From positions 8,598-72,597 of IMG/VR virus record IMGVR_UViG_3300027857_000004: 64,000 nucleotides of DNA; one strand, given 5' to 3'. Shown piece after piece: positions 7,292 through 44,102 of the stretch. How positions within the stretch are numbered: the first letter of the stretch is position 1; each line of letters starts with the position of its first letter. A program made the translations under genes and the position numbers. The notes under the pieces are model-generated. The model had not been told where the DNA came from and did not search any database. It saw only the letters and a program-made list of their open reading frames with translations. The stretch comes from a virus.

Positions 7292-10200
7292 ATGGCAGAC
7301 CCGATTACATTGACGCCGGACGAAATCGCTTCGGCGACTCCAATCACTCAGCCTACTGCTCAACCGGTGCAGCTCACGCCGGAAGAGATTGCTTCTGCTC
7401 AGCCGGTCAATCAGGCAAACCCGGTAAATCCTATTCGTGATTTCACGCCGGACCAGCTCGTCGCTCTCCAACGGCAAGCACCTGAGAGTTTCGATATCAT
7501 TCAGCAATTTCTCTCCGACCCGACCGCGCAAAAAGACCCTGCCGTTAGGCGGAACGCTGAGCAGGCGTATCATCAACTCCGCCAAGAGCCGTGGTATCAC
7601 GATTTGCCGACACCGGCGCAAATGGCGGGGTCTGTTGGCACTATCGTCAAAGGTTTCGGCAAGCAGGCGAGTAATTACGCCTATGCGGCAGCTGGCGCGC
7701 CCGCACTCGGAATCGCAACCGCAACCGGCGCAGGTGATGAACAATCCCGCCAAGAACTGGCGACCGAAATTCAGAACAAGATTGCAACGAACTGGGCAGG
7801 CACAGAGACCGGTCTCACCGGATTAATTTCGCAGATTGGCAAAGTAGTCAGCGCAACAGGCCGGGTGCTCCATATAAACAAGCAGCTCGCCGACTACACG
7901 CCGGAAGACAAAAGCGCAGCTTTTCAAGACGCGCTAACCCAGGCGCAGCAAATTCAATCAGCGATGAAGGGACAGGGACCGCTCATGCAAGCGGTGGGCG
8001 GCAACATCGTGCCGTCACTGAATCTCAAACCCGAAGAAGTTGCCACCGCAGCCGCTGGCGACCCATTTTCGTGGGAAGCGATGGGGACTGGATTAGGCGC
8101 AGCCGGGAAGCTAACGCGCGCCGCGATTCCCGAGGCGGCTCGCGCGGCGATTCAAGATGTTTCGCAACGGGCAGTCGACACACTCGCCAAAGGTGTGACC
8201 ATTCCCGCCGGTGCTGCTATTTCATCTTTTGGCAAACTGGCCGGTATGGGAATCGAAAGAGCCCCCGGCGCAGCGGCTGCCGGAGCTGTTCTTGGCGCCA
8301 CTCACGCACTCGGTCTCCCCGGTGAACTTAGCGGCTTCTTGGCTGCCGGTTTAAAAGACATTCGGTCTGCCCCGATAACTCGGCTAGGTGAAGCAGTCGG
8401 TCAAGCTGCCTCTGAGGCACCCGCATTCGGGCGACAAATTACCGGCGCTGAACCGGTCACCGGCGCCTACGCTCAATTAGGACGCGATATCGTCAAATCG
8501 ATTCCCACTGCCGTAGCAGATATCGGCAAAGGCGCGGCATTCGACCTGGGGCTCGCTGCGACGTCTGACACGCCGCAGGAAAAGCAAGCGGTTGGGCTGG
8601 GCACAACGTTAGGAATTCTCGGAGGCGTAGCTGGCGCAGGAAAACGCGCTCTAACCGGACAGCTAATTGCACCGCGCGAATTCACCGGCAACGCGAACTA
8701 TTTACCAGGAACTGGAACAGTTCCGATTTTGGAAGATTTGACCCGGCAAACGTTCCCCAGCATGACGCCGGGCCAGCGTGTCCGGTTCAACGCGACCAGA
8801 GATTTTCTGCGCGGCGCGAATCCGAATGCAGACATTTTCGTCAGCTCTGGCTCAGATGCGACAGCTAAAGCGTTGACCGACCTTGGCTACTCGCCGGACG
8901 ATGCTGCCCGGCTCAGCTCACAAGGTGGCGTCACAACCGAAATTAACGGTCACAAAGTCGCCATCGTCAATGCCGACAGCTTTGATACCGCGCCACACGA
9001 AGCTCGCCACGCGATTGAGAACGTAATGGGCGAGCAGGCACTCCGCCAGCTCGATGACGAAATCAGTTCCGCATACGGAACTAAAAACATGGACGCTATC
9101 GGGCGCTATTACACGTCCAAGATATTTCAGGGGCGAGACCCGGGCGCAAATTGGCAGACGCCTCTTCTCGATATCACGGGCGAAGGCGAGCGGATGGCGC
9201 GTGAGAAATTAATTCAGCAAGGAGTGCCGGACGACCAACTCAAACAGCAATCGTCCGACTGGGGAAATGTTTTGACTCCGGCGGAGATGCAAGACGCAGC
9301 GAACCGTTACGTGGCTCGCGAAATCGCCGCAGAGAATTTCAGCACTTGGTTCAGCAAGATGGGCGGAGACGTCAACGCGAAACAACAGGTGCCCGAGAAG
9401 CTCGCGCAATGGACAGCCGCCGTGATGAGAACCTTCGGCGCTGAACCGCTCGCCGGTCAGGTCAGTCCGCTTGGATTGCCGCTCTCCAGCAAAGTGATTC
9501 AACGAGTGGGTGAGCAGGCGCGTGAGTTGACCCGACCGAGTGTCGAACCGGCTGAAGAACCAGCTACCGGTGCGCCGAGACCCCCGGAAAAGGAAGCGCG
9601 CAACGCAGTCGAATTAGCGAGAACCGCGCCCGATGTTCCGGTAGCCGGTGGCACGAAATCGCAGCGTGAAATTCTCGGGACCGTCGCCGAAGCGATAGCG
9701 AACCGGACCGGCGTAAAGCTCAATTACCTGTCAGCGCCGGAGGAACCGGCTGCCGCTACGACGTCAAACCGGCCAGTTCGGCGTCAGATGATTGAGATTT
9801 TTCGCTCGATGCCGGAGTCGGCACGCAAACTCTGGGAGAAAACTTTCTTCCCCGACAAAGTCACGAAGTCGAAAAAGGGTTATCAAATTCAAGGCTGGGC
9901 ACCGGAAGTCTTTGCCGCCAATGCGCACAAGTTGGCAGGCACAATCGCCAGCACGCCGGAAATGGCTGGCCTGTCTCCGTATGAAGTCGACCCGGCAACA
10001 AAGTCATTTACGCCAGAAGCTTGGCAGCAACTGTATAACGACACCAGCCGATTTGTGGCGAATCAGCAGTCCGGACGCACCGGTTCAGGTGTCCCTCTCG
10101 AAGTTCCGCCGGGAATGCAAGAGAAGGGATTTTTCAAACCGCCGTTGAAACCGGGCGCAGGTTCGCTCGACCAACGCAAGGCCGATTTTATTTCGATGCT

Positions 10201-13200
10201 TTTCAACTTCAAGCTGCCTGACACTGCGCGGCTCGGAGGTGGAAAGTTCCCGCTCAATGTCGCCGGGCAGGAAGTAAGCAAAGCGACTATCCCGGGACGC
10301 ATTGAGTCGCCAGTGATTCCCAGACCGGAATTTACAGAGGGCGCAGTCAAGAAGTTTCCCGAACTGCAAGGCAGACAGATTCTGGAAGTCAATCCGGTCC
10401 GGAACGAATTCGAGAATGCGGCGCTGAAGGCGAATAAGCCGATGCCTTCGTTCATCGAATCCGTTCAGAAATTAAACCTGGAGCACATCAAGGAAGCGGA
10501 ACACGCTCCGGAAGCGTCTCCGGAATTCCGCGGCAACACTTTAACACTGTCAGCCGGATTCGCGCCGAAAACGAACGAGCCGCGAGCCGTTAAAATGGCG
10601 GCTATTCGCGACGAAGGCACCGGCAGGGTTTTCGAGGGTCCGATGCATGCGTCCGCTACGCTCGACTGGCTGCGCGACAAGCACGCTGACAAAATCGATG
10701 AAGCTGGCAATCTGCCGCCCGAAGTAGAATTGGATGCCTGGAATTCGCACCCCAACGTAACCGAAGGATTTACTACAAACAATGGTGAGTTTCTTAACCG
10801 AGAAGAGGCGTTCGAAAGAGCCCAAAGCTTTGGTCAGATGCCAGCTGCTGTAGACGAACCTGGGGCTTCTTTAGAATCCACCGCATTTGAAAAACACAAA
10901 AAGTTAATATCTGCGTTCGCTCCAGCTTCTCGTGAGCAGATGGCAGAATATGAACGTCAACGAGCCGCCTACGAAGCGACTCCCTGGTGGAAGCGTCCAC
11001 CCGTAGGGGAGACCGAAACCGGACGGCACACTTCCTACGCCGGTGACCCGGAATCGGGTTTAGTTCTGCACAGCGCGAAGCAGCGCAGCACCGTTTTCGT
11101 CAGGCCGGGAAACGAAGCGAACGCTTTTCTTTCGAAGTGGCAACAGGCGCCGAACCAAGCGGCAAAAGACCAAGTGGTGGAATCTTATTTCGGTCCGACT
11201 GGTGCGCAATTTGCGCCCGATAAAAAGACGTTCATCGTTCGGCACGGCTCGACCGAAATGAACAACTCGGACCCGGACAAAGACTTGATTCGCGGCCATA
11301 TCGATGTTCCGCTCGATGATAAAGGCAGACGCGAAGCGGGTGAGGCTGCTCAGAATATCGCCGACCAAGGCGGAGTTAACCACGTCATCGCGTCCGACTT
11401 GGGTAGGACGCAAGAAACCGGCCAGATAATCGCCGATAAGAACGGCGCGACAATGGAATTAGACCCGGGGTTGCGGCCTTGGAAGTTCGGTCCGACAATC
11501 GAAGGCAAGCCGACGGCGAAGATGCTGCCTGAGATTAAGCGGCTGACCGAGAACCCGGATGAGAGACCGCCCGAGGGTGAAACGTTCAACGAATTCAAAG
11601 ACCGCTTTCTGGACGCTTTCCATCGCGCGCAAGAGAATCACGCCGACAAAAACACTGCGATTGTGACGCACTACCGAGGCACGAAGTTGCTCGATGCGTG
11701 GCGCGCTACCGGAACTGACAACGACACAATCGACAAGGCTATTTTCGAGAAATACGACAAAGACAAAACGCCGGGCAACGTTGACGTTGTCGACAAAGCC
11801 GGTGCTGAGCTAGCGCCAGAGCCTGAGAAACAACCAGCAGTCGATAAAGCGGCTGAGTTAATGCGGGATGCGAATGACGATGTCAGCCGACAATGGGCAA
11901 GCGAAGCAGCCGCGCAATTCGCCGCGAAAAAACCTGTCGAAGGTGGGCGAAAATCCAAACAGGATTGGACACTGCGAGAGGGGCCGGGTCTTTTCAGCAA
12001 AGCGTGGATTCTGCCCGATGGCAAACCGGTTCAGCTTGGCGGCCAATGGCACCACGAGTGGCTGAATGAGAATCCGAACATCGCGAAAAAATATGGTCTT
12101 AAAACTACCACTAGCGCTGAAGACAACCGTTCTGAGGCTTTGCAAAAAGGGTTCGCTCGTGTTAACTATGAAAAAAACACCGGCACGCTCAAGGTCGAAG
12201 CTCGCGCGCAGGATTGGCAAAAAATAGCACCGGCAATCAGGCAGCTAGCGGAAACTAATCTGCGCAAAATCGACAACATGGACGTTCATCTGCTCGACTC
12301 CAAAGCGCAGCGAATAGTCGACTCTGATGGGGTGGCATTGCACACATACGACCCGGGCGAGAAGATGGACCATCTTCCGATGATATCGGAGCCGACGAGC
12401 ACGACCACGATGAGTGCACAAGCTCCAGCAGAAAAAGCTCAATTTTCACCTAGTAAAAAAGAAGATAAAATAAGAGCGGTTGAAAGATACAAACAATTTT
12501 GGATTTTGAACAATGGTGAAATAGTGCCTTCTCCAGAAGGGCACATGGCTTCTGCTAGAGACGTGCTGCCCCACGAAACCATATTAGAAGACCGTAAAAC
12601 TGGTGTGGCAGGTTCCTTATATGATAGCATGCAAAACCGGGGGCATCTTCGGGGCATGCTAATGGAATATCCAAACAAAAGCATAGAAATTGAGGGGTCG
12701 GTAAAAGTGCCAGTGTCCAGATTAGCAAAAGAATCCATAGAAGATATTTCACACGCTCTCGAAAGACCAGCAAATATAAATGGAAAGCGACTGGAGACTG
12801 GTTTTCCGGAAGAACAAGGTCCGGGCCTCGTCTCAAATCAATTCGCACCGAGCGACCATCCGCGCGCTATTCGCGGCGCCGCTGTGCGTGACCGTGAGAC
12901 CGGTAAGATTTACGAGGGTCCGATGCACTTCTATGCGTTGCAGCGAGCGGAAGAGGCGGGCGCGACCGGGATACATGACGAAGGTTTTATGACGAACAGC
13001 GGCGAGTTTTTGAATCGCCGAGAAGCATTTGACCGAGCAAAAGAACTAGACCAGTTGAAGACGCCGGAAACTCCGCAGCAAGCGGAAGCGTTGGAACGCG
13101 CAGAGCGATTCGGCGCGTTATCGGAACAAGTCAAAGGCATCCAATTCGCGCCACCGAATCAAGACGAGCTGGACAAAATCAAATCGGGCGAATCGTTCGG

Positions 13201-14962
13201 TCAAACGTTCAACCAGGACGGTTCGGTATGGCAGCCCACAAACAAAAAGCAGGATATCGTCACACTCGCCAGTGTCAACATTCCGACTGCCCAATTGAGT
13301 CAGGACGAAGTCCAGAAAGCATCTGCCCCCTACTCCGATTTGCTGAACAATCCGAATGTCAAACTCGGTGCGTTCAATTTCGAGCAGGCCGGTAAGCCAA
13401 TGACGAGTATCGATATCAACGCCATCGTGCCGCAAGCACACCGCGAGAATTCGCTCAAGTTCGCCAAGGACAACGACCAGATGGCGATTTTCGATATGGC
13501 GAAAAACGATGTGGTGAACACCGGCGGCGCCGGTAACACGAAGCTGACCACTCCGGCGCACATTGCCAAAGCTCTGCCCGCGCTACTCGCTGGAGAACCA
13601 GTTGATGTCGACCGGATTTTAGCTGCCCAACATCGCATAGCGTCGAACATTCCGGCTGGCAAAAAGCCTTTGCCTGTCAGTGACGACTTGTCGGTCAAGT
13701 CAGCTCTCGCGCAGACGACGATGGACAAGTTCACCACCGAAGTTGCGGACCGAATCAAAAGCAATCCAGGTTTTCGAGACATCAAAGGAACGTCTCCAGA
13801 GAAAGTCCTGCCGCAGATTGTGAATCGGATGGCTGAGAATATCCGTTTCCTTTTCGACAAAGCGACCGATGCGAACAAAAAACTGTGGAAGCAATGGTAT
13901 GACATCGCGAACGATTTAAGCCATCGCCTGGGTGGCGAATTCGAGCTGCCCCACTTTGCTGTCGCCGGTATCAATGCCCGGCTCTCGCCGCAAAAAGATT
14001 GGTATATGAACGTGACGCTGACTCGCAAGCTTCTTCAGACCGTTGCGGCGGACCCGGCGTGGAGCGAAAGCGACAAACTGTTCACGCGGTCAGTTCTGGA
14101 GAACGCCGAAACAGCGCGCCGCAAAAAATTAGCCGATGACGGCGAAACTCCGACCCAGAAAAGTATCGATGCATTTAACGACCGCATTGCGAACGTGGAG
14201 AGCATTCCGGAAGGAAAACGAGTAAGCGAAATGACGCCGGAGGATGCCGCTTACTTGATTCGCAGTCACAACGAACTGAAGGGCGACAAAATAATTGTCG
14301 ACCACAATTTCAAGCCGGTCAAGGGAGCGGGCAAACTGACGTGGCAGACATATGAGGCACTCTCTGATGCGTTGAAGATTCTGCGCAACCCGACTCTCGA
14401 AGAAATCAACACCCAGCTCGGGAGCAACCACAAGGTCAGAAGTTTTTATAACAATCACGTCGACCCGATGAACCCACAAGACGTGACTGTCGACACTCAC
14501 GCCGTCGCAGCTTCGCACTTAATGCCCTACGGGAGCAAGAACAAACCTATCTTGGAGAACTTCGGAGCGGTCCGGCACAAAAACTCCGGCTACAACGGAA
14601 GCTATTTCGTGACTGCCGATGCGTATCGGCAGGTTGCAAAAGAAGTTGGCTTACTCCCGCGCGAAGTTCAATCTATCGTGTGGGAACAAATGCGCAACAC
14701 GCTGACACCGGCAGGAAAGCGGACACCTGGATTGGTGAAGCAGACCGACGCAATCTGGGCGAAAGCAGAGAAGGGAAAAATCACTCGCGACGAAGCACGC
14801 AACCAGATTTACAGCCTTTTCGAAAAGGTCAGCGGTAACAAAGCGAGCAAAGGTCAAGCGGACTGGTATGACGAGTATCTGGCGAGCAAAGAGCAAGCGT
14901 TCGCAAAAGATTTCGAAGGTAAAGAAAGTCTAACACATGAAACTGCCGAACAGCCATTTTAG
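7292..14962 (+). CDS. Giant polyvalent internal virion protein (HExxH metallopeptidase-like motif, histidine phosphatase, duplicated small modules, C-terminal HhH-GPD/DUF7178-like domain)
   Basis: 2556 aa; PHEARHAIE near 8995; FIVRHG...DVPLDDKG...SDLGR...GETF...VTH near 11230-11680; C-terminal WY...LSPQKDW..N...KVRSFY...VTVDTHA...YRQVA...LPREVQSIVW. Confidence 0.8.
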   Translation: MADPITLTPDEIASATPITQPTAQPVQLTPEEIASAQPVNQANPVNPIRDFTPDQLVALQRQAPESFDIIQQFLSDPTAQKDPAVRRNAEQAYHQLRQEPWYHDLPTPAQMAGSVGTIVKGFGKQASNYAYAAAGAPALGIATATGAGDEQSRQELATEIQNKIATNWAGTETGLTGLISQIGKVVSATGRVLHINKQLADYTPEDKSAAFQDALTQAQQIQSAMKGQGPLMQAVGGNIVPSLNLKPEEVATAAAGDPFSWEAMGTGLGAAGKLTRAAIPEAARAAIQDVSQRAVDTLAKGVTIPAGAAISSFGKLAGMGIERAPGAAAAGAVLGATHALGLPGELSGFLAAGLKDIRSAPITRLGEAVGQAASEAPAFGRQITGAEPVTGAYAQLGRDIVKSIPTAVADIGKGAAFDLGLAATSDTPQEKQAVGLGTTLGILGGVAGAGKRALTGQLIAPREFTGNANYLPGTGTVPILEDLTRQTFPSMTPGQRVRFNATRDFLRGANPNADIFVSSGSDATAKALTDLGYSPDDAARLSSQGGVTTEINGHKVAIVNADSFDTAPHEARHAIENVMGEQALRQLDDEISSAYGTKNMDAIGRYYTSKIFQGRDPGANWQTPLLDITGEGERMAREKLIQQGVPDDQLKQQSSDWGNVLTPAEMQDAANRYVAREIAAENFSTWFSKMGGDVNAKQQVPEKLAQWTAAVMRTFGAEPLAGQVSPLGLPLSSKVIQRVGEQARELTRPSVEPAEEPATGAPRPPEKEARNAVELARTAPDVPVAGGTKSQREILGTVAEAIANRTGVKLNYLSAPEEPAAATTSNRPVRRQMIEIFRSMPESARKLWEKTFFPDKVTKSKKGYQIQGWAPEVFAANAHKLAGTIASTPEMAGLSPYEVDPATKSFTPEAWQQLYNDTSRFVANQQSGRTGSGVPLEVPPGMQEKGFFKPPLKPGAGSLDQRKADFISMLFNFKLPDTARLGGGKFPLNVAGQEVSKATIPGRIESPVIPRPEFTEGAVKKFPELQGRQILEVNPVRNEFENAALKANKPMPSFIESVQKLNLEHIKEAEHAPEASPEFRGNTLTLSAGFAPKTNEPRAVKMAAIRDEGTGRVFEGPMHASATLDWLRDKHADKIDEAGNLPPEVELDAWNSHPNVTEGFTTNNGEFLNREEAFERAQSFGQMPAAVDEPGASLESTAFEKHKKLISAFAPASREQMAEYERQRAAYEATPWWKRPPVGETETGRHTSYAGDPESGLVLHSAKQRSTVFVRPGNEANAFLSKWQQAPNQAAKDQVVESYFGPTGAQFAPDKKTFIVRHGSTEMNNSDPDKDLIRGHIDVPLDDKGRREAGEAAQNIADQGGVNHVIASDLGRTQETGQIIADKNGATMELDPGLRPWKFGPTIEGKPTAKMLPEIKRLTENPDERPPEGETFNEFKDRFLDAFHRAQENHADKNTAIVTHYRGTKLLDAWRATGTDNDTIDKAIFEKYDKDKTPGNVDVVDKAGAELAPEPEKQPAVDKAAELMRDANDDVSRQWASEAAAQFAAKKPVEGGRKSKQDWTLREGPGLFSKAWILPDGKPVQLGGQWHHEWLNENPNIAKKYGLKTTTSAEDNRSEALQKGFARVNYEKNTGTLKVEARAQDWQKIAPAIRQLAETNLRKIDNMDVHLLDSKAQRIVDSDGVALHTYDPGEKMDHLPMISEPTSTTTMSAQAPAEKAQFSPSKKEDKIRAVERYKQFWILNNGEIVPSPEGHMASARDVLPHETILEDRKTGVAGSLYDSMQNRGHLRGMLMEYPNKSIEIEGSVKVPVSRLAKESIEDISHALERPANINGKRLETGFPEEQGPGLVSNQFAPSDHPRAIRGAAVRDRETGKIYEGPMHFYALQRAEEAGATGIHDEGFMTNSGEFLNRREAFDRAKELDQLKTPETPQQAEALERAERFGALSEQVKGIQFAPPNQDELDKIKSGESFGQTFNQDGSVWQPTNKKQDIVTLASVNIPTAQLSQDEVQKASAPYSDLLNNPNVKLGAFNFEQAGKPMTSIDINAIVPQAHRENSLKFAKDNDQMAIFDMAKNDVVNTGGAGNTKLTTPAHIAKALPALLAGEPVDVDRILAAQHRIASNIPAGKKPLPVSDDLSVKSALAQTTMDKFTTEVADRIKSNPGFRDIKGTSPEKVLPQIVNRMAENIRFLFDKATDANKKLWKQWYDIANDLSHRLGGEFELPHFAVAGINARLSPQKDWYMNVTLTRKLLQTVAADPAWSESDKLFTRSVLENAETARRKKLADDGETPTQKSIDAFNDRIANVESIPEGKRVSEMTPEDAAYLIRSHNELKGDKIIVDHNFKPVKGAGKLTWQTYEALSDALKILRNPTLEEINTQLGSNHKVRSFYNNHVDPMNPQDVTVDTHAVAASHLMPYGSKNKPILENFGAVRHKNSGYNGSYFVTADAYRQVAKEVGLLPREVQSIVWEQMRNTLTPAGKRTPGLVKQTDAIWAKAEKGKITRDEARNQIYSLFEKVSGNKASKGQADWYDEYLASKEQAFAKDFEGKESLTHETAEQPF

Positions 14963-18801: not shown

Positions 18802-19284
18802 CTACAGTCGGCATTTTCCAAAGTTAAGGAGAGCGAATTCTTTGTGATACCGGACAGCCGCTAAATCGTAAGCCCTTGTTGCTTTTCTTTCATCTGCAAA
18901 ATATCCCAGATGATGCTGCTTTCCGTCGAATCGTATCAGAGCTTGCCACAAGGAATACCGGGCATACCAGCTAACCCCCTTGAACTTACTGGCGCAGTTT
19001 TTAAGCTTCCTTCTGTTTCGTGAGTTTTCGCCATGCGTTGCATTTCTAATGTTTTTGCGACGGTTATCAAGCCCGTTTAAATTTTCATGGTCTCCCTGCT
19101 CATGCCGCTTCAATCCCAGGATTAGCCTATGCATGCGTATCGTGCCGACACCCGGTTGGCGCCGCAGCGCGTATTTGCGCCCGTCTTTCTTGGTCTCAAT
19201 TTGCCACTTTCATTGGCTAAGCCATTCAAAATCACAATCATCAACCAAAGCAAACTGACCCTGCGTAAGTGGTATGCGCTTCAT
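18802..19284 (-). pseudogene. HNH-AP2 endonuclease with an in-frame TGA at codon 25
   Basis: MKRIPLTQGQFALVDDCDFEWLSQ*KWQ... continues in frame into the listed 18802..19134 ORF; paralogues have W at the stop (19210-19212). Confidence 0.8.
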
Positions 19285-19964
19285 TCGGACAGTTCCTCCT
19301 TAAGTTTCGCAATTGCACGATTCCAGGTGACTCCAATCCAGGCGCGGCTGCAATTGAATTCTTCTCCTGCTTCCCGAAACGAAAAGCCAGTGTGCCGGAT
19401 GAAAAGAATAACGGCGCGCTCAAACGGCGTAAGGCAGCCGATAACTTTTTCAATCGCTTCCCACTGTTCTTTCGCGTCAATCGCGCTGAAGTCAGGTTCA
19501 ACTTTGCCTTCGATTTCTCCGCTTTCATCAACGCCTTCGATTTCTCTTTCTATTCCTCTCCGGCTAGCGGTGCGGTCTCTACCCTCTTCGATATATGCAT
19601 CCCAGCTCGTGGTGTGCGCCTTTTTCACTGTCTCTAAGCCTCTCCAGTATTCGGTCAGCAAACCGCGGAGAGCTTTCTTGGCGAAATGAAAATACCTTCC
19701 ATGTTTCGGGTCAAAGTTTCGAGCTGCCCGGTCAAGAGCTTTGTAGGACACGCTCACTAATTCACCATCTTCAACTTGGTGCTTGGACAGCTCTCGCAGA
19801 TACAACACTGCCTCCCGCAAGGAATGCTCAATCAGAAAATTAATCGCCTCTCGGTCTCCCTTGCGACGCTTGATTCGGCCTGCGTAATGGCGCTCTTGCT
19901 CGACCGTCAGCGGCTCATCGAGAAGCTGTTTAAACACTATGCTTTCTTCGGTTGTGGTGCTCAT
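19281..19964 (-). CDS. Sigma-70 family RNA polymerase sigma factor
   Basis: PLTVEQE...GDREAINFLI (region 1.2), ALDRAARNFDP..GRYFHFA (region 2), LTPFERAVI...FREAGEEFNCSR (region 4). Confidence 0.88.
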   Translation of the reverse strand: MSTTTEESIVFKQLLDEPLTVEQERHYAGRIKRRKGDREAINFLIEHSLREAVLYLRELSKHQVEDGELVSVSYKALDRAARNFDPKHGRYFHFAKKALRGLLTEYWRGLETVKKAHTTSWDAYIEEGRDRTASRRGIEREIEGVDESGEIEGKVEPDFSAIDAKEQWEAIEKVIGCLTPFERAVILFIRHTGFSFREAGEEFNCSRAWIGVTWNRAIAKLKEELSE

Positions 19965-25853: not shown

Positions 25854-27110
25854 CTATTTTTGAATGTTTGTGTTTTCTGCGTTCTCATCGGATTTGACAC
25901 TAGGTCTAGCCTTGAGAAAAGTAAATGGCGGCTGCTTCACAACTGCGCCCAGCTCTTCAACTTGCTTTTTGAACTTTTCGACCCAGGCTTGCTTTTGTCC
26001 CCGAGGCGCTTTCTCCGCGATGAGCCCTTCCACTGCGCCGAACGTGGTGTCAAGGGTAGAAGCGAATTCGGCAGCCGTGATATAATCAAGCGCAGCCTCC
26101 CGATATTTTTTCAGGTCAACTAACTCGCGCTTTTCGGTCGTCTGAAGAGAGAATCCGATGGGCACCGGAGCGTCTCCCCGTAAGACTCGGTCCGACAGGA
26201 CGGACTTGAATGCCTTCGCCCACACGCTGACAATCGATGCCAGCTGGAGAGCGAGCTTGGTCTGGTTCGGGTCCATTATCTGAGTAGGCGTGATTGAGTC
26301 AGGCATTTCGAGCGGGTGAAACTTTTTGCCGATTTGCAAGAAAAGATTCAGCGCTTTGTCGCACTTGCCGAGGTGCTCACAGAAACCACAAACGGGCGAA
26401 TACGGAGCAGCCATAGAAAAGTCCCCCTTTGCTCTCGCTTCACGAGCGCGAGCCACTGTCGCACACACGCGCGCATAGTGCATTGGAATTTCCTGCCGTG
26501 CGATTTTCGAATACGTAATGGGTCTCTCAGTGACGTGCGGCTGGAGAAAATCGACATACACTTCTTGGACTTTCGGATAGTGGTGAAACACTCCGAGTGC
26601 GTATGCGATGCCCTGCAGGTTTTCTTCCGCGTGAGTAACCGGCCAAATGCCATACTTATAATCGAGAATCACCGCTTTTTTCTGGTCCCACGAAAGTAGT
26701 AGCTTGTCCAGGTAACCAGCGGTTGTGGCGACCGTGCCGTCGTCGTAAATCCGGTCATCTATTCGCAGATAGCACTCGTTAATGTCGAGCACTTGCATTT
26801 CGAAATCGGCGGGGTGCGCCGGGTTCTGAGGCTCGTCGCGTTTGTATCGAGCTTCAACAGCTTCCTCAATGAGCTGCTGCTTACGCATCGCAACATGCTC
26901 TAAACACTGAGCGACAGCAGCGGAGTCTTCGTCACTGATTCGCTCGTCATCGGTCTCTTTCTCAGCCGCGCCGTGCGAGCGGGTTCCGGCAATGGTGCGC
27001 TCATGCAGTTTCTTCGGCTGCCGGGATTTGTAGCACGGACACGCTTCGAGCGATTCAAGCGTGCTCGGAGAGGTTGGATGGTGCGGGCGTTCTTTAATCT
27101 CGGTGTCCAT
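25854..27110 (-). CDS. PD-(D/E)XK Cas4-like exonuclease (DUF2800-like)
   Basis: SPSTL...CP, GT..H, GYLD..ILDYKYG, NLQ..AY, C.FC....C. Confidence 0.85.
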   Translation of the reverse strand: MDTEIKERPHHPTSPSTLESLEACPCYKSRQPKKLHERTIAGTRSHGAAEKETDDERISDEDSAAVAQCLEHVAMRKQQLIEEAVEARYKRDEPQNPAHPADFEMQVLDINECYLRIDDRIYDDGTVATTAGYLDKLLLSWDQKKAVILDYKYGIWPVTHAEENLQGIAYALGVFHHYPKVQEVYVDFLQPHVTERPITYSKIARQEIPMHYARVCATVARAREARAKGDFSMAAPYSPVCGFCEHLGKCDKALNLFLQIGKKFHPLEMPDSITPTQIMDPNQTKLALQLASIVSVWAKAFKSVLSDRVLRGDAPVPIGFSLQTTEKRELVDLKKYREAALDYITAAEFASTLDTTFGAVEGLIAEKAPRGQKQAWVEKFKKQVEELGAVVKQPPFTFLKARPSVKSDENAENTNIQK

Positions 27111-27579
27111 ATTTCTCTCTCATTTCTCGGTAACTTTTTATAGCGTGGCAATTGGCGCAACGCACCTCACATTTTTCTATTTCATCTAAGACCAACGACC
27201 ACTGCCGGGTTCTACCTTCTCCAATAGTAAAGCATTTCGTTCCTCTGACGTGGTCAAAGTGTAAAGCTGCCGGATGCTTGTTATAGCCACAATCGAGGCA
27301 CCCTCTGGAGGATTTTATTTTGTTAATTTCCTGATGCCGCCATCCAAGACTTTTTCGGCTCCATCCGGCGATTCGTTTTTTGCAGGCAGGGCACCTGACG
27401 TGATAAGTGCAAGCCGGTCCACTGTTAAGCGGGCACCGCCAATTTTGTCGATTGTTTTTTCGAGTAGCCGCGGCGCGCGCTCGATTAACGTCTCGTGTTT
27501 TTATACAAGCGGCACAAGGAAAATGATACCGACAACCCTCGGTGCCGGATGGGCATTTAAATTTGAGAATATGCGACAT
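27094..27579 (-). CDS. HNH endonuclease with Cys-rich N-terminus
   Basis: GCLDCG...ALHFDH...EIEKCEVRCANCH. Confidence 0.85.
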   Translation of the reverse strand: MSHILKFKCPSGTEGCRYHFPCAACIKTRDVNRARAAATRKNNRQNWRCPLNSGPACTYHVRCPACKKRIAGWSRKSLGWRHQEINKIKSSRGCLDCGYNKHPAALHFDHVRGTKCFTIGEGRTRQWSLVLDEIEKCEVRCANCHAIKSYREMREKYGHRD

Positions 27580-27824
27580 TAAACTTCTCCACCTTCGGTA
27601 GCCAAAAGCTCTCGTAGTTTTGCTTGAACACGAAAAAGAGCTTGGCATTCAATCCTGCGCACCATAGTGTCCGATATACCGAGCGCTCTGCCCACTTCTG
27701 TCAGACCTTTCCGCTTGTCGAGCTGGTCTGCGATTGCGGCGCCGATTCGCATTTGCTCACGAAACGCGACCGTTTTCTGCTGCGGGATATAACTGGGCTT
27801 CCCTGCTTTTCGAGGTGTGCTCAT
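27579..27824 (-). CDS. Sigma region 4-like HTH DNA-binding protein
   Basis: LTEVGRALGISDTMVRRIECQAL. Confidence 0.7.
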   Translation of the reverse strand: MSTPRKAGKPSYIPQQKTVAFREQMRIGAAIADQLDKRKGLTEVGRALGISDTMVRRIECQALFRVQAKLRELLATEGGEV

Positions 27825-28131: not shown

Positions 28132-28326
28132 TTAATAGCTCGACATGACTTTCTTCGCCATGCTGTCCTGGGCCGGTTTGCCTGTCGGTTTCCAGCCATG
28201 CTCGACCGCATTCAGCAATCGCTTCTGACGCGCCGCCTTGGCAGGAGTGGTGGCTTTCGCTTTGATTCCGCCGGGCGTTCGGACCTGGACTTTTCCTTTG
28301 CCCACTGATTTCATTTTGACTGGCAT
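28132..28326 (-). CDS. Small basic hypothetical protein
   Basis: 64 aa; phage promoter TAGCG-N17-CGACTATT at 28362-28333. Confidence 0.7.
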   Translation of the reverse strand: MPVKMKSVGKGKVQVRTPGGIKAKATTPAKAARQKRLLNAVEHGWKPTGKPAQDSMAKKVMSSY

Positions 28327-28869: not shown

Positions 28870-29592
28870 TCAGTAAGCCTCCGCTTCCTCACGCGTGATG
28901 AAAAAGTGAATACCACCGGAGCATTCAACACGCGGGTCCGGGTCAAAAGAAGCGGGCCTTACAACCTTCCCGACCACGTATTTAAACTCCGGGTCGTGGC
29001 TACTTGCCCCGGCGCCCGAAATGACTTTCGCATACTCAGCGCGACACTTTCGGCCAATCAAACCGCCAACTCGCTTTGCCTTTGCCGGAATCTTGAGTTT
29101 GCAAATGCTTCCGCCTGAAAGTTTCTTCCAACCAATCAAATCGCCTTCCGGAACTATCGTTTTAATGAAAAGAATATGCTCCCAATTTGTCGCGCCGCTG
29201 AGGTCCGCGCCGCTGAGGTCCGCGCCGTAGAGGTCCGCGCCGTAGAGGTCCGCGCTGCGGAGGTCCACGCTGCGGAGGTCCGCGCTGCAGAGGTCCGCGC
29301 TGCGGAGGTTCGCGCCGTAGAGGTTCGCGCTACTGAGGTTCGCGCTAATGAGGTTCGCGCTACTGAGGTCCGCGCCGTAGAGGTCCGCGCCGCTGAGGTC
29401 CGCGCCGTAGAGGTCCGCGCTGCGGAGGTCCGCGCTGCGGAGGTCCGCGCTGCGGAGGTTCGCGCTGCGGAGGTTCGCGCCGTAGAGGTCCGCCGTCGAT
29501 GCAATAGCGGCAGCAACCGCACCACCGATTGTTTCGGCATCGGTCTCAAAGATTACTTTTTCGTCCCAACGATTTTTGATTTGAATTTTCAT
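28870..29592 (-). CDS. Pentapeptide repeat protein with DUF5758-like C-terminus
   Basis: About 20 A(D/N)Lxx repeats; GWKK...KLKIP...KCRAEYA...ECSGGIHFFITREEA. Confidence 0.9.
   Translation of the reverse strand: MKIQIKNRWDEKVIFETDAETIGGAVAAAIASTADLYGANLRSANLRSADLRSADLRSADLYGADLSGADLYGADLSSANLISANLSSANLYGANLRSADLCSADLRSVDLRSADLYGADLYGADLSGADLSGATNWEHILFIKTIVPEGDLIGWKKLSGGSICKLKIPAKAKRVGGLIGRKCRAEYAKVISGAGASSHDPEFKYVVGKVVRPASFDPDPRVECSGGIHFFITREEAEAY
29193..29492. repeat. 15-bp tandem coding repeats
   Basis: gaggt(c/t)cgcgc... units encoding the pentapeptides. Confidence 0.9.
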
Positions 29593-29600
29593 GTTTGTTT

Positions 29601-29840
29601 TTAGCTAAAATACGATTCGATTAAGTGGTCACGCTCGATGCCTGTCTTCGCCTTCCGGAGACGGGTGACAAACTTTGCCGCTTTCGCCGGAGCGAGAAAC
29701 ACGGTGTTTCGGAGTTTCGCACTGTGCAACACAATCCCATCTGCTACGCTGCCCGTCCAGCTGCAATGCCGGTTGTGGTTGTCTTCCACCTTTTCAGTGG
29801 CACGATTATTCATCGCGATTATTTCAGTAAGTCCGTGCAT
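29601..29840 (-). CDS. Small early protein, paralogue of a module in the giant virion protein
   Basis: GIVLHSAKLRNTVF...LIESYF vs GLVLHSAKQRSTVF...VVESYF at 11024-11191. Confidence 0.8.
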   Translation of the reverse strand: MHGLTEIIAMNNRATEKVEDNHNRHCSWTGSVADGIVLHSAKLRNTVFLAPAKAAKFVTRLRKAKTGIERDHLIESYFS

Positions 29841-30049
29841 ATAAAATTGTTGATTCCAGATTTCATCGCTGCCGCGAATTTCGAAACGTGGCAGTTACAA
29901 GCCGGGCGAAACTCCCAGGCCGGGTGTTGCGGCGGCAGGTGCGAATTGTGCACCGTGAAAACTCGCTCTGGGCAGTCTTCGTTATGCTTGAGATTGAGCA
30001 GCACGTCGATTGCCAAGTCGGCAGGGATTAAAACGTTGTCGCTGTTCAT
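29819..30049 (-). CDS. Small hypothetical protein (Cys/His)
   Basis: 76-aa ORF in the early cluster. Confidence 0.5.
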   Translation of the reverse strand: MNSDNVLIPADLAIDVLLNLKHNEDCPERVFTVHNSHLPPQHPAWEFRPACNCHVSKFAAAMKSGINNFICTDLLK

Positions 30050-30250
30050 AACCAGTATTCGTCAATCGCCCAGGAAATTAGCACGCACATCAGCACGATG
30101 CAACCGAAAAAAGATGCGTCGGTCATGGGTCAGTCAAACAGATAATTAATTAGCCAGAACGCCAGAACTACCGAGGCGATGACCAGTGCGGGCACGACCC
30201 ACAGGGTATTGTTGATTGCGACTGCGTCGATTTGTGCGAGGGTCATAAAA

Positions 30251-30409
30251 TCAGGGAGCTTGATAAATGAGCGACGAGCGGAACAAACCGGCGCTCTCGC
30301 GAATCAGTTTGTAGCCCGCGTTCTCCAGCCGAAGCTTTTTGCGCTCAGCAGCGCGCAGACTCTTGATATCTTGCCCGTCCCACTTGACCTCAACTTGTTT
30401 TCTATTCAT
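30251..30409 (-). CDS. Small leaderless early protein (52 aa, MNRKQVEVKW...)
   Basis: Hand translation; ATG 6 nt after TTGACA-16-TATTCT. Confidence 0.6.
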   Translation of the reverse strand: MNRKQVEVKWDGQDIKSLRAAERKKLRLENAGYKLIRESAGLFRSSLIYQAP

Positions 30410-30415
30410 GCCAAA

Positions 30416-30449
30416 AGAATATCACACCTCGCGAAACTGTCAACAGTTT
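30416..30449 (-). promoter_or_regulatory. Strong host sigma70 promoter with palindromic operator over the -35 box
   Basis: TTGACA (30443-30438), TGaTATTCT; AAACTG-TTGA-CAGTTT dyad. Confidence 0.7.
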
Positions 30450-30452
30450 GTT

Positions 30453-31946
30453 TTAGTCTATTTGTAAGTTGTTGGGAATCAGGTCATTGTCGAGCAGCGC
30501 ATCCAGATTATTCAGCTTCGCTGCGAGTGCTCTGCGCATCGGCACCTCGACCGATTTCGCCGCGAAAATCACCCGGTAATATGCAGCCGATTTGCCGCCA
30601 TCGCGAGCAAGGCGACCGAATAACTGCCTCATCGCGGTTGCTGAGTCGGATGGAAACACGATACCCACTCTTGGAGAGTCGCCAGTTAAATCGTGAAGCG
30701 AAAGAGATTCCCGGCCAGCTTGATTGTTCACTATTAGCTCGCGGAATTTGTTGGCCTGAAAATCGTCCACAATCTGCTGGCGGTTTTTTGTGTTGTTCCC
30801 GTCGATTATGCGAGCGTTCGGAAATCGTTTAAACAGCTCATCAATTGTGGCGCGAAAATTCACGAAGAACGCGACCGAGTTTCCTTTTTCAATATAATCC
30901 TGGCCCAACTCAGCGGCTACCCCAATTTTCAAAAGTTCGATGAGCTGCCTTGCGCGTAGCCTTTTTGTCAAAGGCAATTCCGGGTTAATGTCTAGCGAAG
31001 CGCGTTCCTGCAGCTTCGAGTAAGAGTCCGCAATATCGGCATACAGCGCGTTGAGAGCTTCGGTGTCCTTGTCCGGCAGCGTGTATAGTTCAGCCGAAAT
31101 ATGCCGTTCGGGAAAATCGGGTATGTCTTTTTCTGAAAGTCTAACGCCGCGCATCTGAGTCCGAATGTCCGCCATGATAGCGAGCTGGTCGGCCTGGGAC
31201 GCTTGCCATGCCCAGCCTCGCATGGGCACACGACGGCAGCCTTTTCGATAGGCCCAGTTATCGAAGTTGGCTAAGCCATGCAAGCCGAGAAGATAACCCA
31301 GCGCGCGCATCTGGAGTGGCGAGTTAGCAGGAGTGGCGGACAGCGCTAGCGTCATAATGCCTTGCCGTTTGGCGGCAATCATCATTTCCGCGTTTAAACT
31401 GTCATTCGCGGCGCGATGACATTCGTCTAGGATGATAAACTTAACACCAGGATGAAACTGAAAGCGACCGTAACGGTGCGGGCGAACTTTAGTTTGAACG
31501 CAGTGCGTGCCAAACCTGTGGTGAGGGCAAGCCATGAATTTCTCCGCCTGCATTTCTACAACCCGCAGGCAAACGACGCATTGAAAAAATTCTCTTTGCG
31601 TCTTCGAAAGCGGTAAGCCCCCGCTCCACGAACCCAAACTTGTTCTCCCGCTGCGCAACATTTCCCAGCTGAGTATGGTGCAAGTGTCGCCGAAATGTGA
31701 AAAAGCTCTCTTCCATGACTCTACAGAAATCGCCGGAACAACTGCCAAAGTTGGCACGTTAAGATATACAGCCGCGGCTGCAGCTGTGTAACTTTTTCCC
31801 GCACCAGTCGAACTTGTGTCAATAGCTGCCCCATGCTGTTTGAGAATTTCAATGAGCTGTTCAGCTGGCTTGATTTGCCAAGGCCGGAGTTTCTGGGAAA
31901 TTTGGGCAGGCAAAAGCCCCCCAATATCGTTTAGCGGCGTCATCAT
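30453..31946 (-). CDS. SF2 (DExH) helicase with Zn-finger insertion
   Basis: LRPWQ, STGAGKS, ILDECH, LSATP, QLFGRLAR; CxxC..C...C insertion. Confidence 0.9.
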   Translation of the reverse strand: MMTPLNDIGGLLPAQISQKLRPWQIKPAEQLIEILKQHGAAIDTSSTGAGKSYTAAAAAVYLNVPTLAVVPAISVESWKRAFSHFGDTCTILSWEMLRSGRTSLGSWSGGLPLSKTQREFFQCVVCLRVVEMQAEKFMACPHHRFGTHCVQTKVRPHRYGRFQFHPGVKFIILDECHRAANDSLNAEMMIAAKRQGIMTLALSATPANSPLQMRALGYLLGLHGLANFDNWAYRKGCRRVPMRGWAWQASQADQLAIMADIRTQMRGVRLSEKDIPDFPERHISAELYTLPDKDTEALNALYADIADSYSKLQERASLDINPELPLTKRLRARQLIELLKIGVAAELGQDYIEKGNSVAFFVNFRATIDELFKRFPNARIIDGNNTKNRQQIVDDFQANKFRELIVNNQAGRESLSLHDLTGDSPRVGIVFPSDSATAMRQLFGRLARDGGKSAAYYRVIFAAKSVEVPMRRALAAKLNNLDALLDNDLIPNNLQID

Positions 31947-32376
31947 AGGCTCGCGCTGCTTCCTCTTCTGAACAGAAGTATCCTACATCTATCCATTTGT
32001 AATTTACCGTAATCCTAGAACGCCATTTATTGCAATTAGGCGCCCAGGAGACTCCTTTAAATCGGCTCGAAGTGGCACCCTTTTCTTTCCCTCTGTTCGC
32101 GCCGTTCTGAGCCGTGGTTGCTTTTCTAAGATTGTATCGCTGGTTGTTTAAACTGTTTCGGTCTTCGTGGTCGACCTTTACGCCAGAAGGAACCTGTAAA
32201 ATCTCTCGGTGCATCTGGAACTGCAAGCTTCGTCCAAGTTCTGGAAAATATTCTCCTCGACACGCGTATAATCTTCCCCTGGAGTTACGCACTTGCCATT
32301 TCCATTGCATCAGCCAATCGTAATCGGCGTCATCCACCAGCGCGACCTGACCCTGAGTTAAAGGAATTTCTTTCAT
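31861..32376 (-). CDS. HNH-AP2 homing endonuclease
   Basis: IPLTQGQ.ALVDDAD, VDHEDRNSLNNQRYNLR, SRFKGV, AARAYD. Confidence 0.9.
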   Translation of the reverse strand: MKEIPLTQGQVALVDDADYDWLMQWKWQVRNSRGRLYACRGEYFPELGRSLQFQMHREILQVPSGVKVDHEDRNSLNNQRYNLRKATTAQNGANRGKEKGATSSRFKGVSWAPNCNKWRSRITVNYKWIDVGYFCSEEEAARAYDDAAKRYWGAFACPNFPETPALANQAS

Positions 32377-33893: not shown

Positions 33894-34364
33894 TTAGAAG
33901 TTGGTGACTGCAAACTCTCGATACATTTTGCGGGCAGCGGCATCGTAAGCCTTGGCCGCATCAACCTCGCTTGAAAAGCTGCCTAAATATAGGCGTTGCC
34001 CGTCTGCGTAAATGCGCGCCATCCACTGTTCCCGATAACTATGGACTCCCTTATACTGGCTTGAACACCCGCTTCGTTTCCTTCGGTTTCTGTTATTTTG
34101 CGAGAAAGTGGCTGGGCGCAAGTTGTGCCGTTGATTGTCTAACCCGTTTCTGTTTTGATGGTCCACTCGCGGGCACCCCGGAAGCAAAACGCTATGCATT
34201 CCAATCGTGGTTTGCTTTCGCGTAATAGGGTCACGCGGCGACTTGCGAGAGGCATAGAACGTGTTGTCAGCCTTTATCGCATGCCAGTTCCACTGGCTCA
34301 GCCAATCAAAATCGGCATCGTCCACTAGGGCAAACTGACCTTGAGTGAGCGGAATCCGTTTCAT
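33894..34364 (-). CDS. HNH-AP2 homing endonuclease
   Basis: MKRIPLTQGQFALVDD, VDHQNRNGLDNQRHNLR, SQYKGV, AAKAYD. Confidence 0.9.
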   Translation of the reverse strand: MKRIPLTQGQFALVDDADFDWLSQWNWHAIKADNTFYASRKSPRDPITRKQTTIGMHSVLLPGCPRVDHQNRNGLDNQRHNLRPATFSQNNRNRRKRSGCSSQYKGVHSYREQWMARIYADGQRLYLGSFSSEVDAAKAYDAAARKMYREFAVTNF

Positions 34365-34720
34365 TGAACCCGAGGCACAATTGTTTTCTCGACGATTTTG
34401 CCACCCTTCTCGTCCGCCTTGCGGCTGGTCTTGTCGTATTCGCCAGCGTTGCGGTTGCGTTCGAGTGGCCAATATTCCTGTGGGATAGCATCCGGCCTTG
34501 AATCAGCCGGTGTGTTCTTCTTTGATTTCTTCATAATATGTTAATTCACTCATTTGGTAAAACGCTCAACACGTCCCAGTCTTCCATTGACTTTTCTGTT
34601 TCGCTGACCACATAACTCCACGGGTCTTCGCTCGCCTGACTGGCGGTGCAGTTGTCGCACACAAGCTCTTTGATGCCCGTGCAGCGAATTTTGACTATGT
34701 GGCTTTTGTCGCCGGGCATG

Positions 34721-39205: not shown

Positions 39206-39379
39206 GTGAGCAAGAAAAAGCATCGTCCGCGGAAGAATCCGGACCCACTTTTCGACAACCAGCCGCAGTCGCTCCAGACCCTGAACAAAGTCGCGAAGCG
39301 CGGCATTCGGCTGCAAGAGCGTGCCCAGTGGTGGGCGCAAGCCCCAAATAATCCCGACTCGCCTACTTACACCGGATGA
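39206..39379 (+). CDS. Small basic protein (57 aa, MSKKKHRPRK...)
   Basis: GTG just after phage promoter 39171-39200; stop overlaps the next ATG. Confidence 0.55.
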   Translation: MSKKKHRPRKNPDPLFDNQPQSLQTLNKVAKRGIRLQERAQWWAQAPNNPDSPTYTG

Positions 39380-39906
39380 GTGCAACGACTTTTATTTACG
39401 CCCTTAAAGAAGGTGGAATCGTTCGCTACATAGGCAAAGCCGATAACCCCGCGAAACGATTCAAGCAGCATCTTCGGAATGCGGCCAAAGGTCGAACATA
39501 CAAGGACCGCTGGATTCAATCGATGCTGACTCGCAATGAGCCCGTTGTGCTCGATGTTTTGATGCGGATTCCGGTAGCAGAGTGGGACTGGTGGGAACGC
39601 GCTTACATTTCTATTTTCGGGTTAGTGTTTCCTTTAACTAATTCGACCGAGGGAGGCGATGGAGTTTCGGGAAAAGTTGTCTCGGATTCTAATAGAACGC
39701 GAACATGGTCAACGAAAAGCCGGAATAAAATAAGCATTGGAAATAGAGGTAAAAAACGTTCGCCCGAAGCACGCGTACGGTATCGAGCTATAAAGAAATC
39801 ACCTGCGCAACTAGCTGCGCTCGCTCTCGGTTCCGCGGCAAATCGAGGAAGGCAAAAGCTCCCTGATGGAAGCTGGGTCTACCCTAAAGATTTTCTTGGC
39901 CTATGA
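39376..39906 (+). CDS. GIY-YIG homing endonuclease
   Basis: FIYALK..RYIGKA...RFKQH; LTNSTEGGDG. Confidence 0.88.
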   Translation: MSATTFIYALKEGGIVRYIGKADNPAKRFKQHLRNAAKGRTYKDRWIQSMLTRNEPVVLDVLMRIPVAEWDWWERAYISIFGLVFPLTNSTEGGDGVSGKVVSDSNRTRTWSTKSRNKISIGNRGKKRSPEARVRYRAIKKSPAQLAALALGSAANRGRQKLPDGSWVYPKDFLGL

Positions 39907-43325: not shown

Positions 43326-44102
43326 ATGCCTGACCATGACAGACCTTTTAATCCGCCGGTGTTCCTTGGCGGCAGCACGCAGCCCCGGCAGCAGCAATTT
43401 GTTTTCGTCTCTAACGCGTTAAAGCTGGACCCGAACGGTCCGCCGGTGAAGCTTGACCCGAATACGCCGGTCAAGCTCGACCCGAATTCGTCTGTCGCGG
43501 TTCGCGGTCCGATTAGCCTCGACCCGAACGGTCCGCCGGTAAAGCTCGACCCGAGCACATCGGTGACGCTTCACGGCAATCCGAAGGTAGCGCTCGCTCG
43601 GGGTAATGAGTCTGCTTCGGTTGACTTCAACGGAATCGCGCAGCCGGTCACTTTTTCGAATCCGGCACGGTCGTATCTATCGCTCGTGTGGGAACGTCTT
43701 CCTGGGGCTATCACCGAAAGCGTGTTAGTGAACTGGACAAGCGGCACGTTCCAAGGCAACAAAATCAATCCGGTGGCGAGTAGCTACAAAGTGACAAACG
43801 GCAAAACGCTTCGCATAACCCAGCTCGGGATTGCGGTCATCGCCACGGCTGCCACTGTTTTCAATTCGCGATTCCGGTTGAGAATGAACGGACCCCAGCC
43901 GGTGACAAACAGCTCGCCGATTTTCTGGCAGGGTGAATTGGGAATCAACACTCCGACCGCAGCGGTCGGTCAGGAAAATTCAGACAGTATTTTTCTTTTC
44001 GATGGATTCGAAATCCCCGGTGGAACGAGTATCACGTTCACGCATATCGAATCCGTCGCCACCGGTCTGGTGTCTCTTTCTTTAGTCGGATATGAGCAGT
44101 GA
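43326..44102 (+). CDS. Paralogous surface protein with LDPN repeats
   Basis: C-terminus shared with the 42027 gene (WER, GKTLRITQ, FNSR, ITFTH.ES.ATG.VSL..GYE); promoter at 43290-43319. Confidence 0.65.
   Translation: MPDHDRPFNPPVFLGGSTQPRQQQFVFVSNALKLDPNGPPVKLDPNTPVKLDPNSSVAVRGPISLDPNGPPVKLDPSTSVTLHGNPKVALARGNESASVDFNGIAQPVTFSNPARSYLSLVWERLPGAITESVLVNWTSGTFQGNKINPVASSYKVTNGKTLRITQLGIAVIATAATVFNSRFRLRMNGPQPVTNSSPIFWQGELGINTPTAAVGQENSDSIFLFDGFEIPGGTSITFTHIESVATGLVSLSLVGYEQ

Follow-up and report, generated by a model that had tools for sequence, protein, structure and literature searches.

Polyvalent proteins, as set out in the main text of Iyer, Burroughs, Anand, de Souza, and Aravind (2017, PMC5512222), form a class of large proteins, encoded by phages and conjugative elements, that are predicted to enter the cell together with the DNA; they are often processed by a zincin-like peptidase, lie near late genes, and are built from domains that also occur solo. 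According to the same text, several of the large polyvalent-protein-associated domains (LPDs 1-40) are also found outside polyvalent proteins as small stand-alone proteins, and many solo LPDs adjoin structural or type IV secretion system (T4SS) genes. Here we analyze a stretch of 64,000 nucleotides (the window) of a phage genome, IMG/VR record IMGVR_UViG_3300027857_000004, in which one small domain is present twice: as a module of a giant protein of 2556 amino acids and as a separate gene of 79 residues. The parent record is 72,597 bp long, has direct terminal repeats of 127 bp and a G+C content of 53%, and contains the window as its bases 8598-72597; coordinates refer to the window unless stated otherwise. 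The giant is probably a polyvalent protein that carries, as one of its cargo modules (module B), an old paralogue of a solo gene that belongs to the core of the phage's replication block. Capsid-borne proteins that are injected with the DNA and act at time zero are known from other phages, such as T4 IPI*, P1 DarA/DarB, and the N4 virion RNA polymerase, and some of these are proteolytically matured. For those systems, we are aware of no further paralogue of the injected module that the same genome transcribes separately, and no relation in sequence or fold between them and the domain described here was found.

The plus-strand translation of 11024-11191 reads RHTSYAGDPESGLVLHSAKQRSTVF...KDQVVESYF and corresponds to residues 1245-1300 of the giant open reading frame (ORF), 7292..14962 (plus strand). 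The region 29601..29840 has an open frame on the minus strand alone, encoding a 79-aa protein (P0002) that contains RDHLIESYF; its plus-strand reading contains a stop. An earlier note on this DNA had aligned the two by hand, with 24 of 56 residues identical, and had proposed that they are paralogues. BLASTP bears this out at E 3e-13 (52.4 bits), with 25/61 identical (41%) and 37/61 positive residues and one gap between solo residues 19-78 and giant residues 1240-1300; the figure of 24/56 arises because the first aligned Glu falls outside the shorter range and is dropped from the 25. When the solo protein was used as a hidden Markov model (HMM) query against the whole 72.6-kb genome, it matched only itself and the module of the giant (E 2.6e-11). 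In the reverse search, in which the giant was cut at its linkers into eight modules, module B alone had a match elsewhere in the genome (E 1e-11), the next best outside match for any of the eight being at E 0.15. Module B, the embedded copy of this unnamed ~80-aa domain, spans 10925..11209 (plus strand; residues 1212-1306), with a BLAST-aligned core at 11009-11191 and a family-HMM envelope of residues 1222-1314 (75.6 bits). It is bounded, as had been noticed before, by a FAP linker upstream (10916..10924, plus strand; residues 1209-1211) and a QFAP linker downstream (11210..11218, plus strand; FAP at residues 1307-1309), such that 10916-11218 both starts and ends with FAP and the module stands as a discrete unit. 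There is hardly any doubt that module B and the solo protein are true homologues that share one fold.

The domain has many relatives. A word-indexed search returned four small homologues of the solo protein (P0004-P0007), and a profile made from these four and the module found 125 proteins at E<=1e-3, 69 of them at E<=1e-10, among 1.84 billion representatives. Six matches to low-complexity repeats (P0065, P0095, P0097, P0106, P0117, and P0118) and a 44-aa fragment (P0111) were dropped, and the giants of this genome (G000) and of the related record G004, the window's solo protein P0002, and P0004-P0007 were added. The final family has 98 stand-alone rows (<140 aa), 14 of intermediate length (140-348 aa), and 13 giants. 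The word-indexed search, when used for longer fused forms of 140-2000 aa, yielded 0 of 27 candidates; the giants exceed that limit and came to light in the full HMMER scan alone. P0002 matched no family in Pfam-A, PHROGs v4, or NCBIfam 20. When 83 family members were compared with Pfam, only scattered noise appeared (no Pfam family was matched by more than three members, the best E being 7.5e-4), and against PHROGs a single member gave a noise-level match (E 0.0081). The family profile returned one row from the PDB sequences, at E 0.027 and without a matched stretch; the ESM Atlas feature search gave no usable match, a genome-contig scan with the family alignment gave 26 pattern matches and 0 relatives, and viral-contig scans with the distant members P0079, P0046, and P0115, taken one by one, gave no matches. 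Judged by these comparisons, the ~80-aa domain is a family without a name or assigned function whose main form is stand-alone and basic; the solo forms have a median isoelectric point (pI) of 9.9, with 87/98 above 8. Ten of the family members (P0093, P0110, P0112, P0114, P0115, P0119, P0120, P0127, P0128, and P0130; 139-195 aa) have the domain at the N terminus followed by a second conserved segment (...RPGW...), and on the 125-row tree they form one group (Shimodaira-Hasegawa-like approximate likelihood ratio test [SH-aLRT] 80) within a 12-row group with support of 93. Weak pentapeptide matches in Pfam were seen for 3/83 family members. A view of the mid-length forms as pentapeptide-repeat fusions was discarded once their sequences had been read.

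Structure prediction places both copies in the same arrangement. With the family alignment, AlphaFold2 models the solo protein at a predicted local distance difference test (pLDDT) score of 91.0, with a helix at residues 4-14, strands at 27-31, 35-39, and 46-49, and helices at 51-63 and 67-76; the module B segment (pLDDT 86.9) is predicted with the same order of helix, three strands, and two helices, its FAP-bearing ends being coil of low pLDDT. Both models have the same top entry in BFVD (E 3.4e-4 and 5.1e-4), and Foldseek against the PDB returned nothing at E<=1e-3 (best 0.83). The PqqD or RiPP (ribosomally synthesized and post-translationally modified peptide) recognition element fold, a peptide-binding three-stranded sheet with helices, gives scores no better than noise for a domain of 60 residues; the ~80-aa domain differs from it in having only two helices after the sheet and an extra N-terminal helix, and there is no sequence relation. 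A homodimer prediction for the solo protein scored 0.00 and carries no weight either way. Residues conserved in at least 90% of the 83 rows are M1, N11, R24, S27, H39, S40, A41, R44, T46, and F57, and the C-terminal ESYF is kept in 70-88%. In the predicted model, R24, S27, H39-S40-A41, R44, and T46 lie in or near the three strands and the loop that connects the second to the third. The family, with more than 100 clusters at 50% identity, combines a confident predicted structure with no convincing match among solved structures.

The multi-module protein that the earlier note saw in the giant ORF has an architecture of the polyvalent type, in which a conserved N-terminal scaffold is followed by cargo modules, as read from the ORF list, the translation, Pfam, and relatives. 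Pfam recognizes His_Phos_1 at residues 1314-1465 (E 2.9e-30; 11231..11686, plus strand), which is the next cargo module after module B, and DUF7178 at residues 2175-2276 (E 1.8e-23), and nothing else significant. In NCBIfam, the histidine phosphatase module is matched by both phosphatase and mutase models, all under their cutoffs. Residues 1093-1208 and 1854-1951 (10568-10915 and 12851-13144) are internal duplicates with 41% identity (E 4e-18), and the scaffold contains Gly/Ala-rich hydrophobic stretches and an HExxH motif. His_Phos_1, DUF7178, the HExxH scaffold, the duplicated module, and the ~80-aa module bring several domains of disparate activity together in one polypeptide. The duplicated module type is also present in the giants of records G001, G002, and G003.

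Comparison with other giants shows how the cargo varies. All of the five related records G001-G005 have an ORF of 2331-2680 aa whose N-terminal ~1100 aa are common with the giant at 35-47% identity, and the C-terminal modules differ among them: the phosphatase is present in G001, G003, and G005, and the ~80-aa module, together with the module at residues 1553-1762, only in G004. Among eleven representative database giants (1681-3293 aa) that contain the ~80-aa module, Pfam at E<=1e-3 finds ART-PolyVal in seven (six above the Pfam cutoff), DUF7178 in nine (six above cutoff), DUF3293 in six, GNAT in two, and His_Phos_1 in one, with one giant lacking any Pfam match. The giant resembles polyvalent proteins in joining unrelated modules that are shuffled between relatives, in the HExxH of its scaffold, in having homologues with ART-PolyVal, GNAT, and DUF3293, in domains that also occur solo, and in lying on the same strand as tail-fibre-like genes. 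It differs from them in having no domain with a Pfam PolyVal label, in an ~80-aa module with no match in the Pfam models scanned, and in its histidine phosphatase; the terms "histidine phosphatase" and "phosphoglycerate mutase" are absent from the main text of PMC5512222. On balance, we consider its classification as a polyvalent protein very probable. The ~80-aa domain in turn resembles the LPDs described there, being an uncharacterized globular polyvalent module that is also a small stand-alone protein. It differs in that 83/83 family members have no Pfam match beyond noise, a distinction drawn through Pfam models only, such that the family may be some LPD that never entered Pfam, and in that the solo copy lies in a replication block and not by the structural or T4SS genes named for many solo LPDs in that text.

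Collagen-like tail-fibre genes (genome 3002-5154; PHROG tail-fibre E 1.3e-8 and 3e-7) lie ~10 kb upstream of the giant on the same strand. By analogy with polyvalent proteins, and with these same-strand genes, it can be hypothesized that the giant is packaged and delivered with the DNA; we infer packaging and injection by analogy because the virion context is thin. In a phage collection, megablast with the giant gene and tblastn with the solo protein gave no matches, and tblastn with the giant gave only matches to the DUF7178 region in three phages (26-32% identity) and to the phosphatase. The DUF7178 region (13769-14872, residues 2160-2527) is the giant's only part with cultured-phage relatives; these are Rhodobacteraceae and Roseobacter phages at 30-32% identity, and in one of these records the region carries a methyltransferase annotation. 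The term DUF7178 was not found in the searchable literature.

The linkers suggest how such a protein might be divided. F[AS]P occurs six times in the giant, at residues 1090, 1209, 1307, 1718, 1851, and 1952 (10559-13153), always at module borders, whereas 300 composition shuffles gave 1.12 on average and never more than 4; this enrichment may be taken as a hint of processing. Gln precedes four of the six motifs, and an extra QFAA is found at residues 1542-1545; between them, these motifs stand at all borders between the modules of the giant. QF[AS]P directly follows the ~80-aa module in the giants of this genome, of G004, and of P0039, and it is possibly a lineage-specific cleavage signal. 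A candidate processing peptidase is offered by HEARH in the scaffold (8996..9010, plus strand; residues 569-573), a zincin-type HExxH motif that is aligned in 15/16 giants, the 16th (P0031) having HETLGH at that site. No peptidase family in Pfam matches the scaffold, and we infer from the motif that the HExxH region may be a peptidase. Cleavage of the giant at the linkers is conceivable, although we lean slightly against it. Together, the QF[AS]P linkers and the conserved HExxH provide a testable hypothesis on how such polyproteins are cut.

The solo gene has a different standing in this phage group. Fourteen related IMG/VR records were found (24.7-75.3 kb, from a lineage of ~70 kb), which with this genome make 15. 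The stand-alone form is present in 15/15, and the embedded form in 2/15 (this genome and G004; the presence of the giant ORF was looked at in G001-G005 of the related records G001-G014), or in 2/10 if only records with a completeness of at least 90% are counted. In this ~70-kb phage lineage, the solo gene belongs to the core and keeps its position. It lies in a minus-strand replication block with helicase, polymerase, and nucleases, and a superfamily 2 (SF2) helicase (ResIII/Helicase_C by PHROG and Pfam; 30453..31946, minus strand) is found within ~1.2 kb of it in each of the five related loci that were inspected. Three of the five also have a DUF2800/PD-(D/E)XK nuclease downstream, as does the window (25854-27110). 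As the records form one lineage, this neighbourhood is conserved synteny and not an independent association. A 64-aa ORF at 28132-28326 (minus strand) has relatives in 11/13 related loci at 62-80% identity, far more than its neighbours.

The earlier note had also assigned the solo gene to an early cluster under a TTGACA promoter at 30443. The site exists: a sigma-70-like match at 30416..30443 on the minus strand, right after the helicase stop, combines TTGACA, a 16-nt spacer, and TATTCT (10/12 positions) with TG before the -10 hexamer, and it is one of two sites at 10/12 or better in the window. An ATG follows 6 nt past the -10 hexamer. The "early" label is not established by this, since the solo gene lies in the replication block and its ATG is 603 nt downstream of that single match, past four small ORFs (29819..30409, minus strand; sequence reading and ORF list) of 52 aa (30251-30409), ~38 and ~26 aa (both short and hydrophobic), and 76 aa (29819-30049). 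The 76-aa ORF, which the solo gene overlaps by 22 nt, has relatives in 3/13 related loci. On reading the sequence, no clear Shine-Dalgarno motif was seen before the solo ATG or the four small ORFs. Comparable promoter-like sites, with an ATG 5-7 nt past the -10, lie 34-469 nt upstream of the solo gene in 5/13 related loci (L005, L006, L022, L023, and L027), abutting the solo ATG directly in L006 and L027, and none was found in the other 8/13. In this genome, the leaderless-type pattern is not enriched, with one site compared with a shuffle mean of 1. For the small-gene cluster, host-type transcription, possibly as a leaderless mRNA, is plausible from these signals. As a separate observation on the phage group, the -10/ATG spacing of 5-7 nt and the small genes without Shine-Dalgarno motifs suggest that leaderless transcripts may be made there.

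Sequence identities and phylogeny give insight into the history of the two forms. Module B is 48.6% identical to the module of the G004 giant and 54% identical to the solo protein P0022, compared with 41% for the solo protein of its own genome, and P0002 is 70% identical to its nearest orthologue. In the 125-row tree, 12 of the 13 giant modules group with two solo forms (SH-aLRT 81), P0002 is placed with its orthologues elsewhere, and the giant label requires three changes compared with a mean of 12.5 when labels are shuffled. It is quite likely that the two copies are old paralogues and not the products of a fresh duplication, a conclusion that is favoured and not proven. The same tree favours a small number of ancient captures into giants. 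The earlier proposal that early genes are captured into the virion polyprotein therefore holds in this deep-time sense only.

It can be hypothesized from the above that the giant would be packaged and would enter the cell with the DNA, and that the QF[AS]P linkers would serve as cleavage sites, possibly for an HExxH peptidase of the giant itself. Such a cut would free a protein of ~95 aa equivalent to the solo product, such that the activity would be there before any transcription, and the solo copy would then provide the same activity during replication from a host-type promoter. The domain would most likely be a binding module rather than an enzyme. Because of the near-invariant polar residues and the high pI of the solo forms, a phosphate-bearing ligand is considered, most plausibly nucleic acid such as phage DNA or replication intermediates; that the domain binds nucleic acid or a phosphate ligand is, however, only a tentative proposal that we regard as doubtful. 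Bolder, and rather improbable as a whole, is the idea that the capsid is pre-loaded with the product of the phage's own core replication-block gene, with the module freed by an HExxH cut, plausibly between Gln and Phe, and a new fold clamping a phosphate-bearing ligand, for which DNA ends, replication intermediates, or a nucleotide signal could be candidates. A hydrophobic P1' site is the preference of thermolysin-like zincins. A function required on the incoming DNA would in this way be in place ahead of transcription. Were pre-loading true, pairs of embedded and solo forms would mark phage functions that are time-critical at entry.

Several observations weigh against this explanation. Neither ART-PolyVal nor MPTase-PolyVal was found by Pfam in the giant itself (E<=0.1). 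Portal, capsid, and terminase were not recognized by Pfam, PHROGs, or a PDB sequence search, the sole hint of a terminase being ORF 50479-52434 against a large terminase at E 0.31, and the late-module context of the giant consequently rests on the tail-fibre-like genes ~10 kb off. The phage is uncultured, and the packaging, cleavage, and expression proposed here are predicted from its genes. Counts of F[AS]P exceed their own shuffle maxima only in the giants of this genome, P0031 (8), and P0039 (5); QF[AS]P is absent or unenriched in most other giants and is therefore no general processing signal, and an HExxH motif alone would not prove a peptidase. Unlike the solo forms, the embedded copies are not basic, with a median pI of 6.4 and 5/13 above 8, which weakens a simple DNA-binding reading. 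With regard to history, the domain is short, the SH-aLRT value of 81 for the giant-module clade is weak support, and the giants need five changes on a 40-row tree. The subset behind this tree takes in every giant (13), 9 rows from the clade of P0002, and 18 further rows of solo or mid-length form, leaving 85 out; on it, forcing the solo protein and module of this genome to be sisters lowers the log-likelihood by 21.9 and is not rejected by the approximately unbiased (AU) test (p-AU 0.198).

The other explanation that survives best concerns what the domain does. It could be a counter-defence or host-takeover factor, such as a small inhibitor or sponge of a host immune protein or nucleotide signal, that is delivered with the DNA and expressed again early. 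The domain is cargo of polyvalent proteins, which Iyer et al. predict to be carriers of counter-defence activities (PMC5512222); its companions in the giants are ART, GNAT, and phosphatase modules, and its small size goes with a cluster of conserved polar residues in which a nucleotide could be held. In addition, a variable accessory slot adjoins the solo gene on its downstream side, occupied here by a pentapeptide-repeat protein whose relatives are found in 0/13 related loci. Unlike typical accessory counter-defence genes, the solo gene is itself core and fixed in position (15/15), and this distribution disfavours the domain as the anti-defence candidate that the earlier note had put forward; we regard such a role as unlikely.

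The occupant of that slot, at 28870-29592 (minus strand), has pentapeptide repeats and a C-terminal DUF5758 (Pfam E 1.6e-43 and 7e-20), and its gene is accessory because it is absent from all 13 related loci. Pentapeptide-repeat proteins are known DNA mimics. A functional partnership with the solo protein was considered and rejected on the same lack of conservation.

Could the domain instead be a very small enzyme, or a catalytic core, in which His39-Ser40, Arg24, Arg44, and Thr46 act on a phosphorylated or nucleotide substrate? The near-invariant polar pattern resembles the one used in the main text of Iyer et al. to flag potentially enzymatic LPDs, and His_Phos_1 comes directly after module B in this giant and is the next recognized Pfam domain in P0039, starting ~100 residues past the module. 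However, a core of ~65 residues that form three strands and two helices leaves little room for an active site; Cys26 is replaced in 24/83 rows, and no enzyme is found among the structural neighbours above noise. We therefore think an enzymatic function quite improbable, and a binding module within a polyvalent giant remains our preferred description of the domain.

A further alternative concerns its origin, namely, that the gene beside the helicase was recently copied, within this phage, into the ORF of the giant. Both copies are indeed in one genome, the AU test leaves their sisterhood standing, and embedded forms (13) are nested among far commoner solo forms (98), which makes the direction from solo to giant plausible over deep time. 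As a recent event it is very improbable: the copies are only 41% identical, module B is nearer to the module of the G004 giant and to another solo form, 12/13 giant modules fall in one group, and the embedded copy is missing from 13/15 related phages of near-identical synteny. Finally, the notion that the similarity is due to chance or that the 79-aa ORF is no gene, for which the solo ATG without a Shine-Dalgarno motif, its 22-nt overlap with the upstream ORF, and a longer ORF on the opposite strand (29625-30149, 174 aa) could be cited, has a negligible probability and is already refuted by the homology (E 3e-13), the 69 database relatives at E<=1e-10, the confident fold, and orthologues of conserved start and length in 15/15 related records.

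The pairing of cargo module and core gene leaves the concept of polyvalent proteins unchanged, as solo versions of their domains are, in the main text of PMC5512222, already described as a general phenomenon and part of that concept. What is new is the domain family, its confident predicted structure without a known relative, the linker motif, and the finding that a single genome contains the domain in both forms. One phage lineage puts the domain to two uses, as a fixed small gene by the replication helicase and as occasional cargo of the giant. Since the solo protein provides the module in a ready-made form of soluble size, the presence of both forms in one genome offers a clean experimental handle.

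Other features of the genome lie outside these two loci. At least eight HNH/homing-endonuclease genes are scattered through the window, several of them between replication genes (837-1415, 18802-19134, 27094-27648, 31861-32376, 33894-34472, 39376-39906, 44092-44649, and 47632-48177). The replication block also encodes a sigma-factor-like protein (19281-19964, minus strand; PHROG 351, E 1.8e-10) that may direct late transcription. A 444-aa protein at 46293-47627 (plus strand) has an Ice_binding-like domain (PF11999, E 1.3e-60), and a serine recombinase or invertase is encoded at 48841-49722. The segment 58754-61319 (plus strand) holds two genes for nucleotide-sugar epimerases and, after them, one for a Mom-like DNA-modification protein (PHROG 1384, E 7.4e-40), a combination that suggests a sugar-type hypermodification of the DNA.

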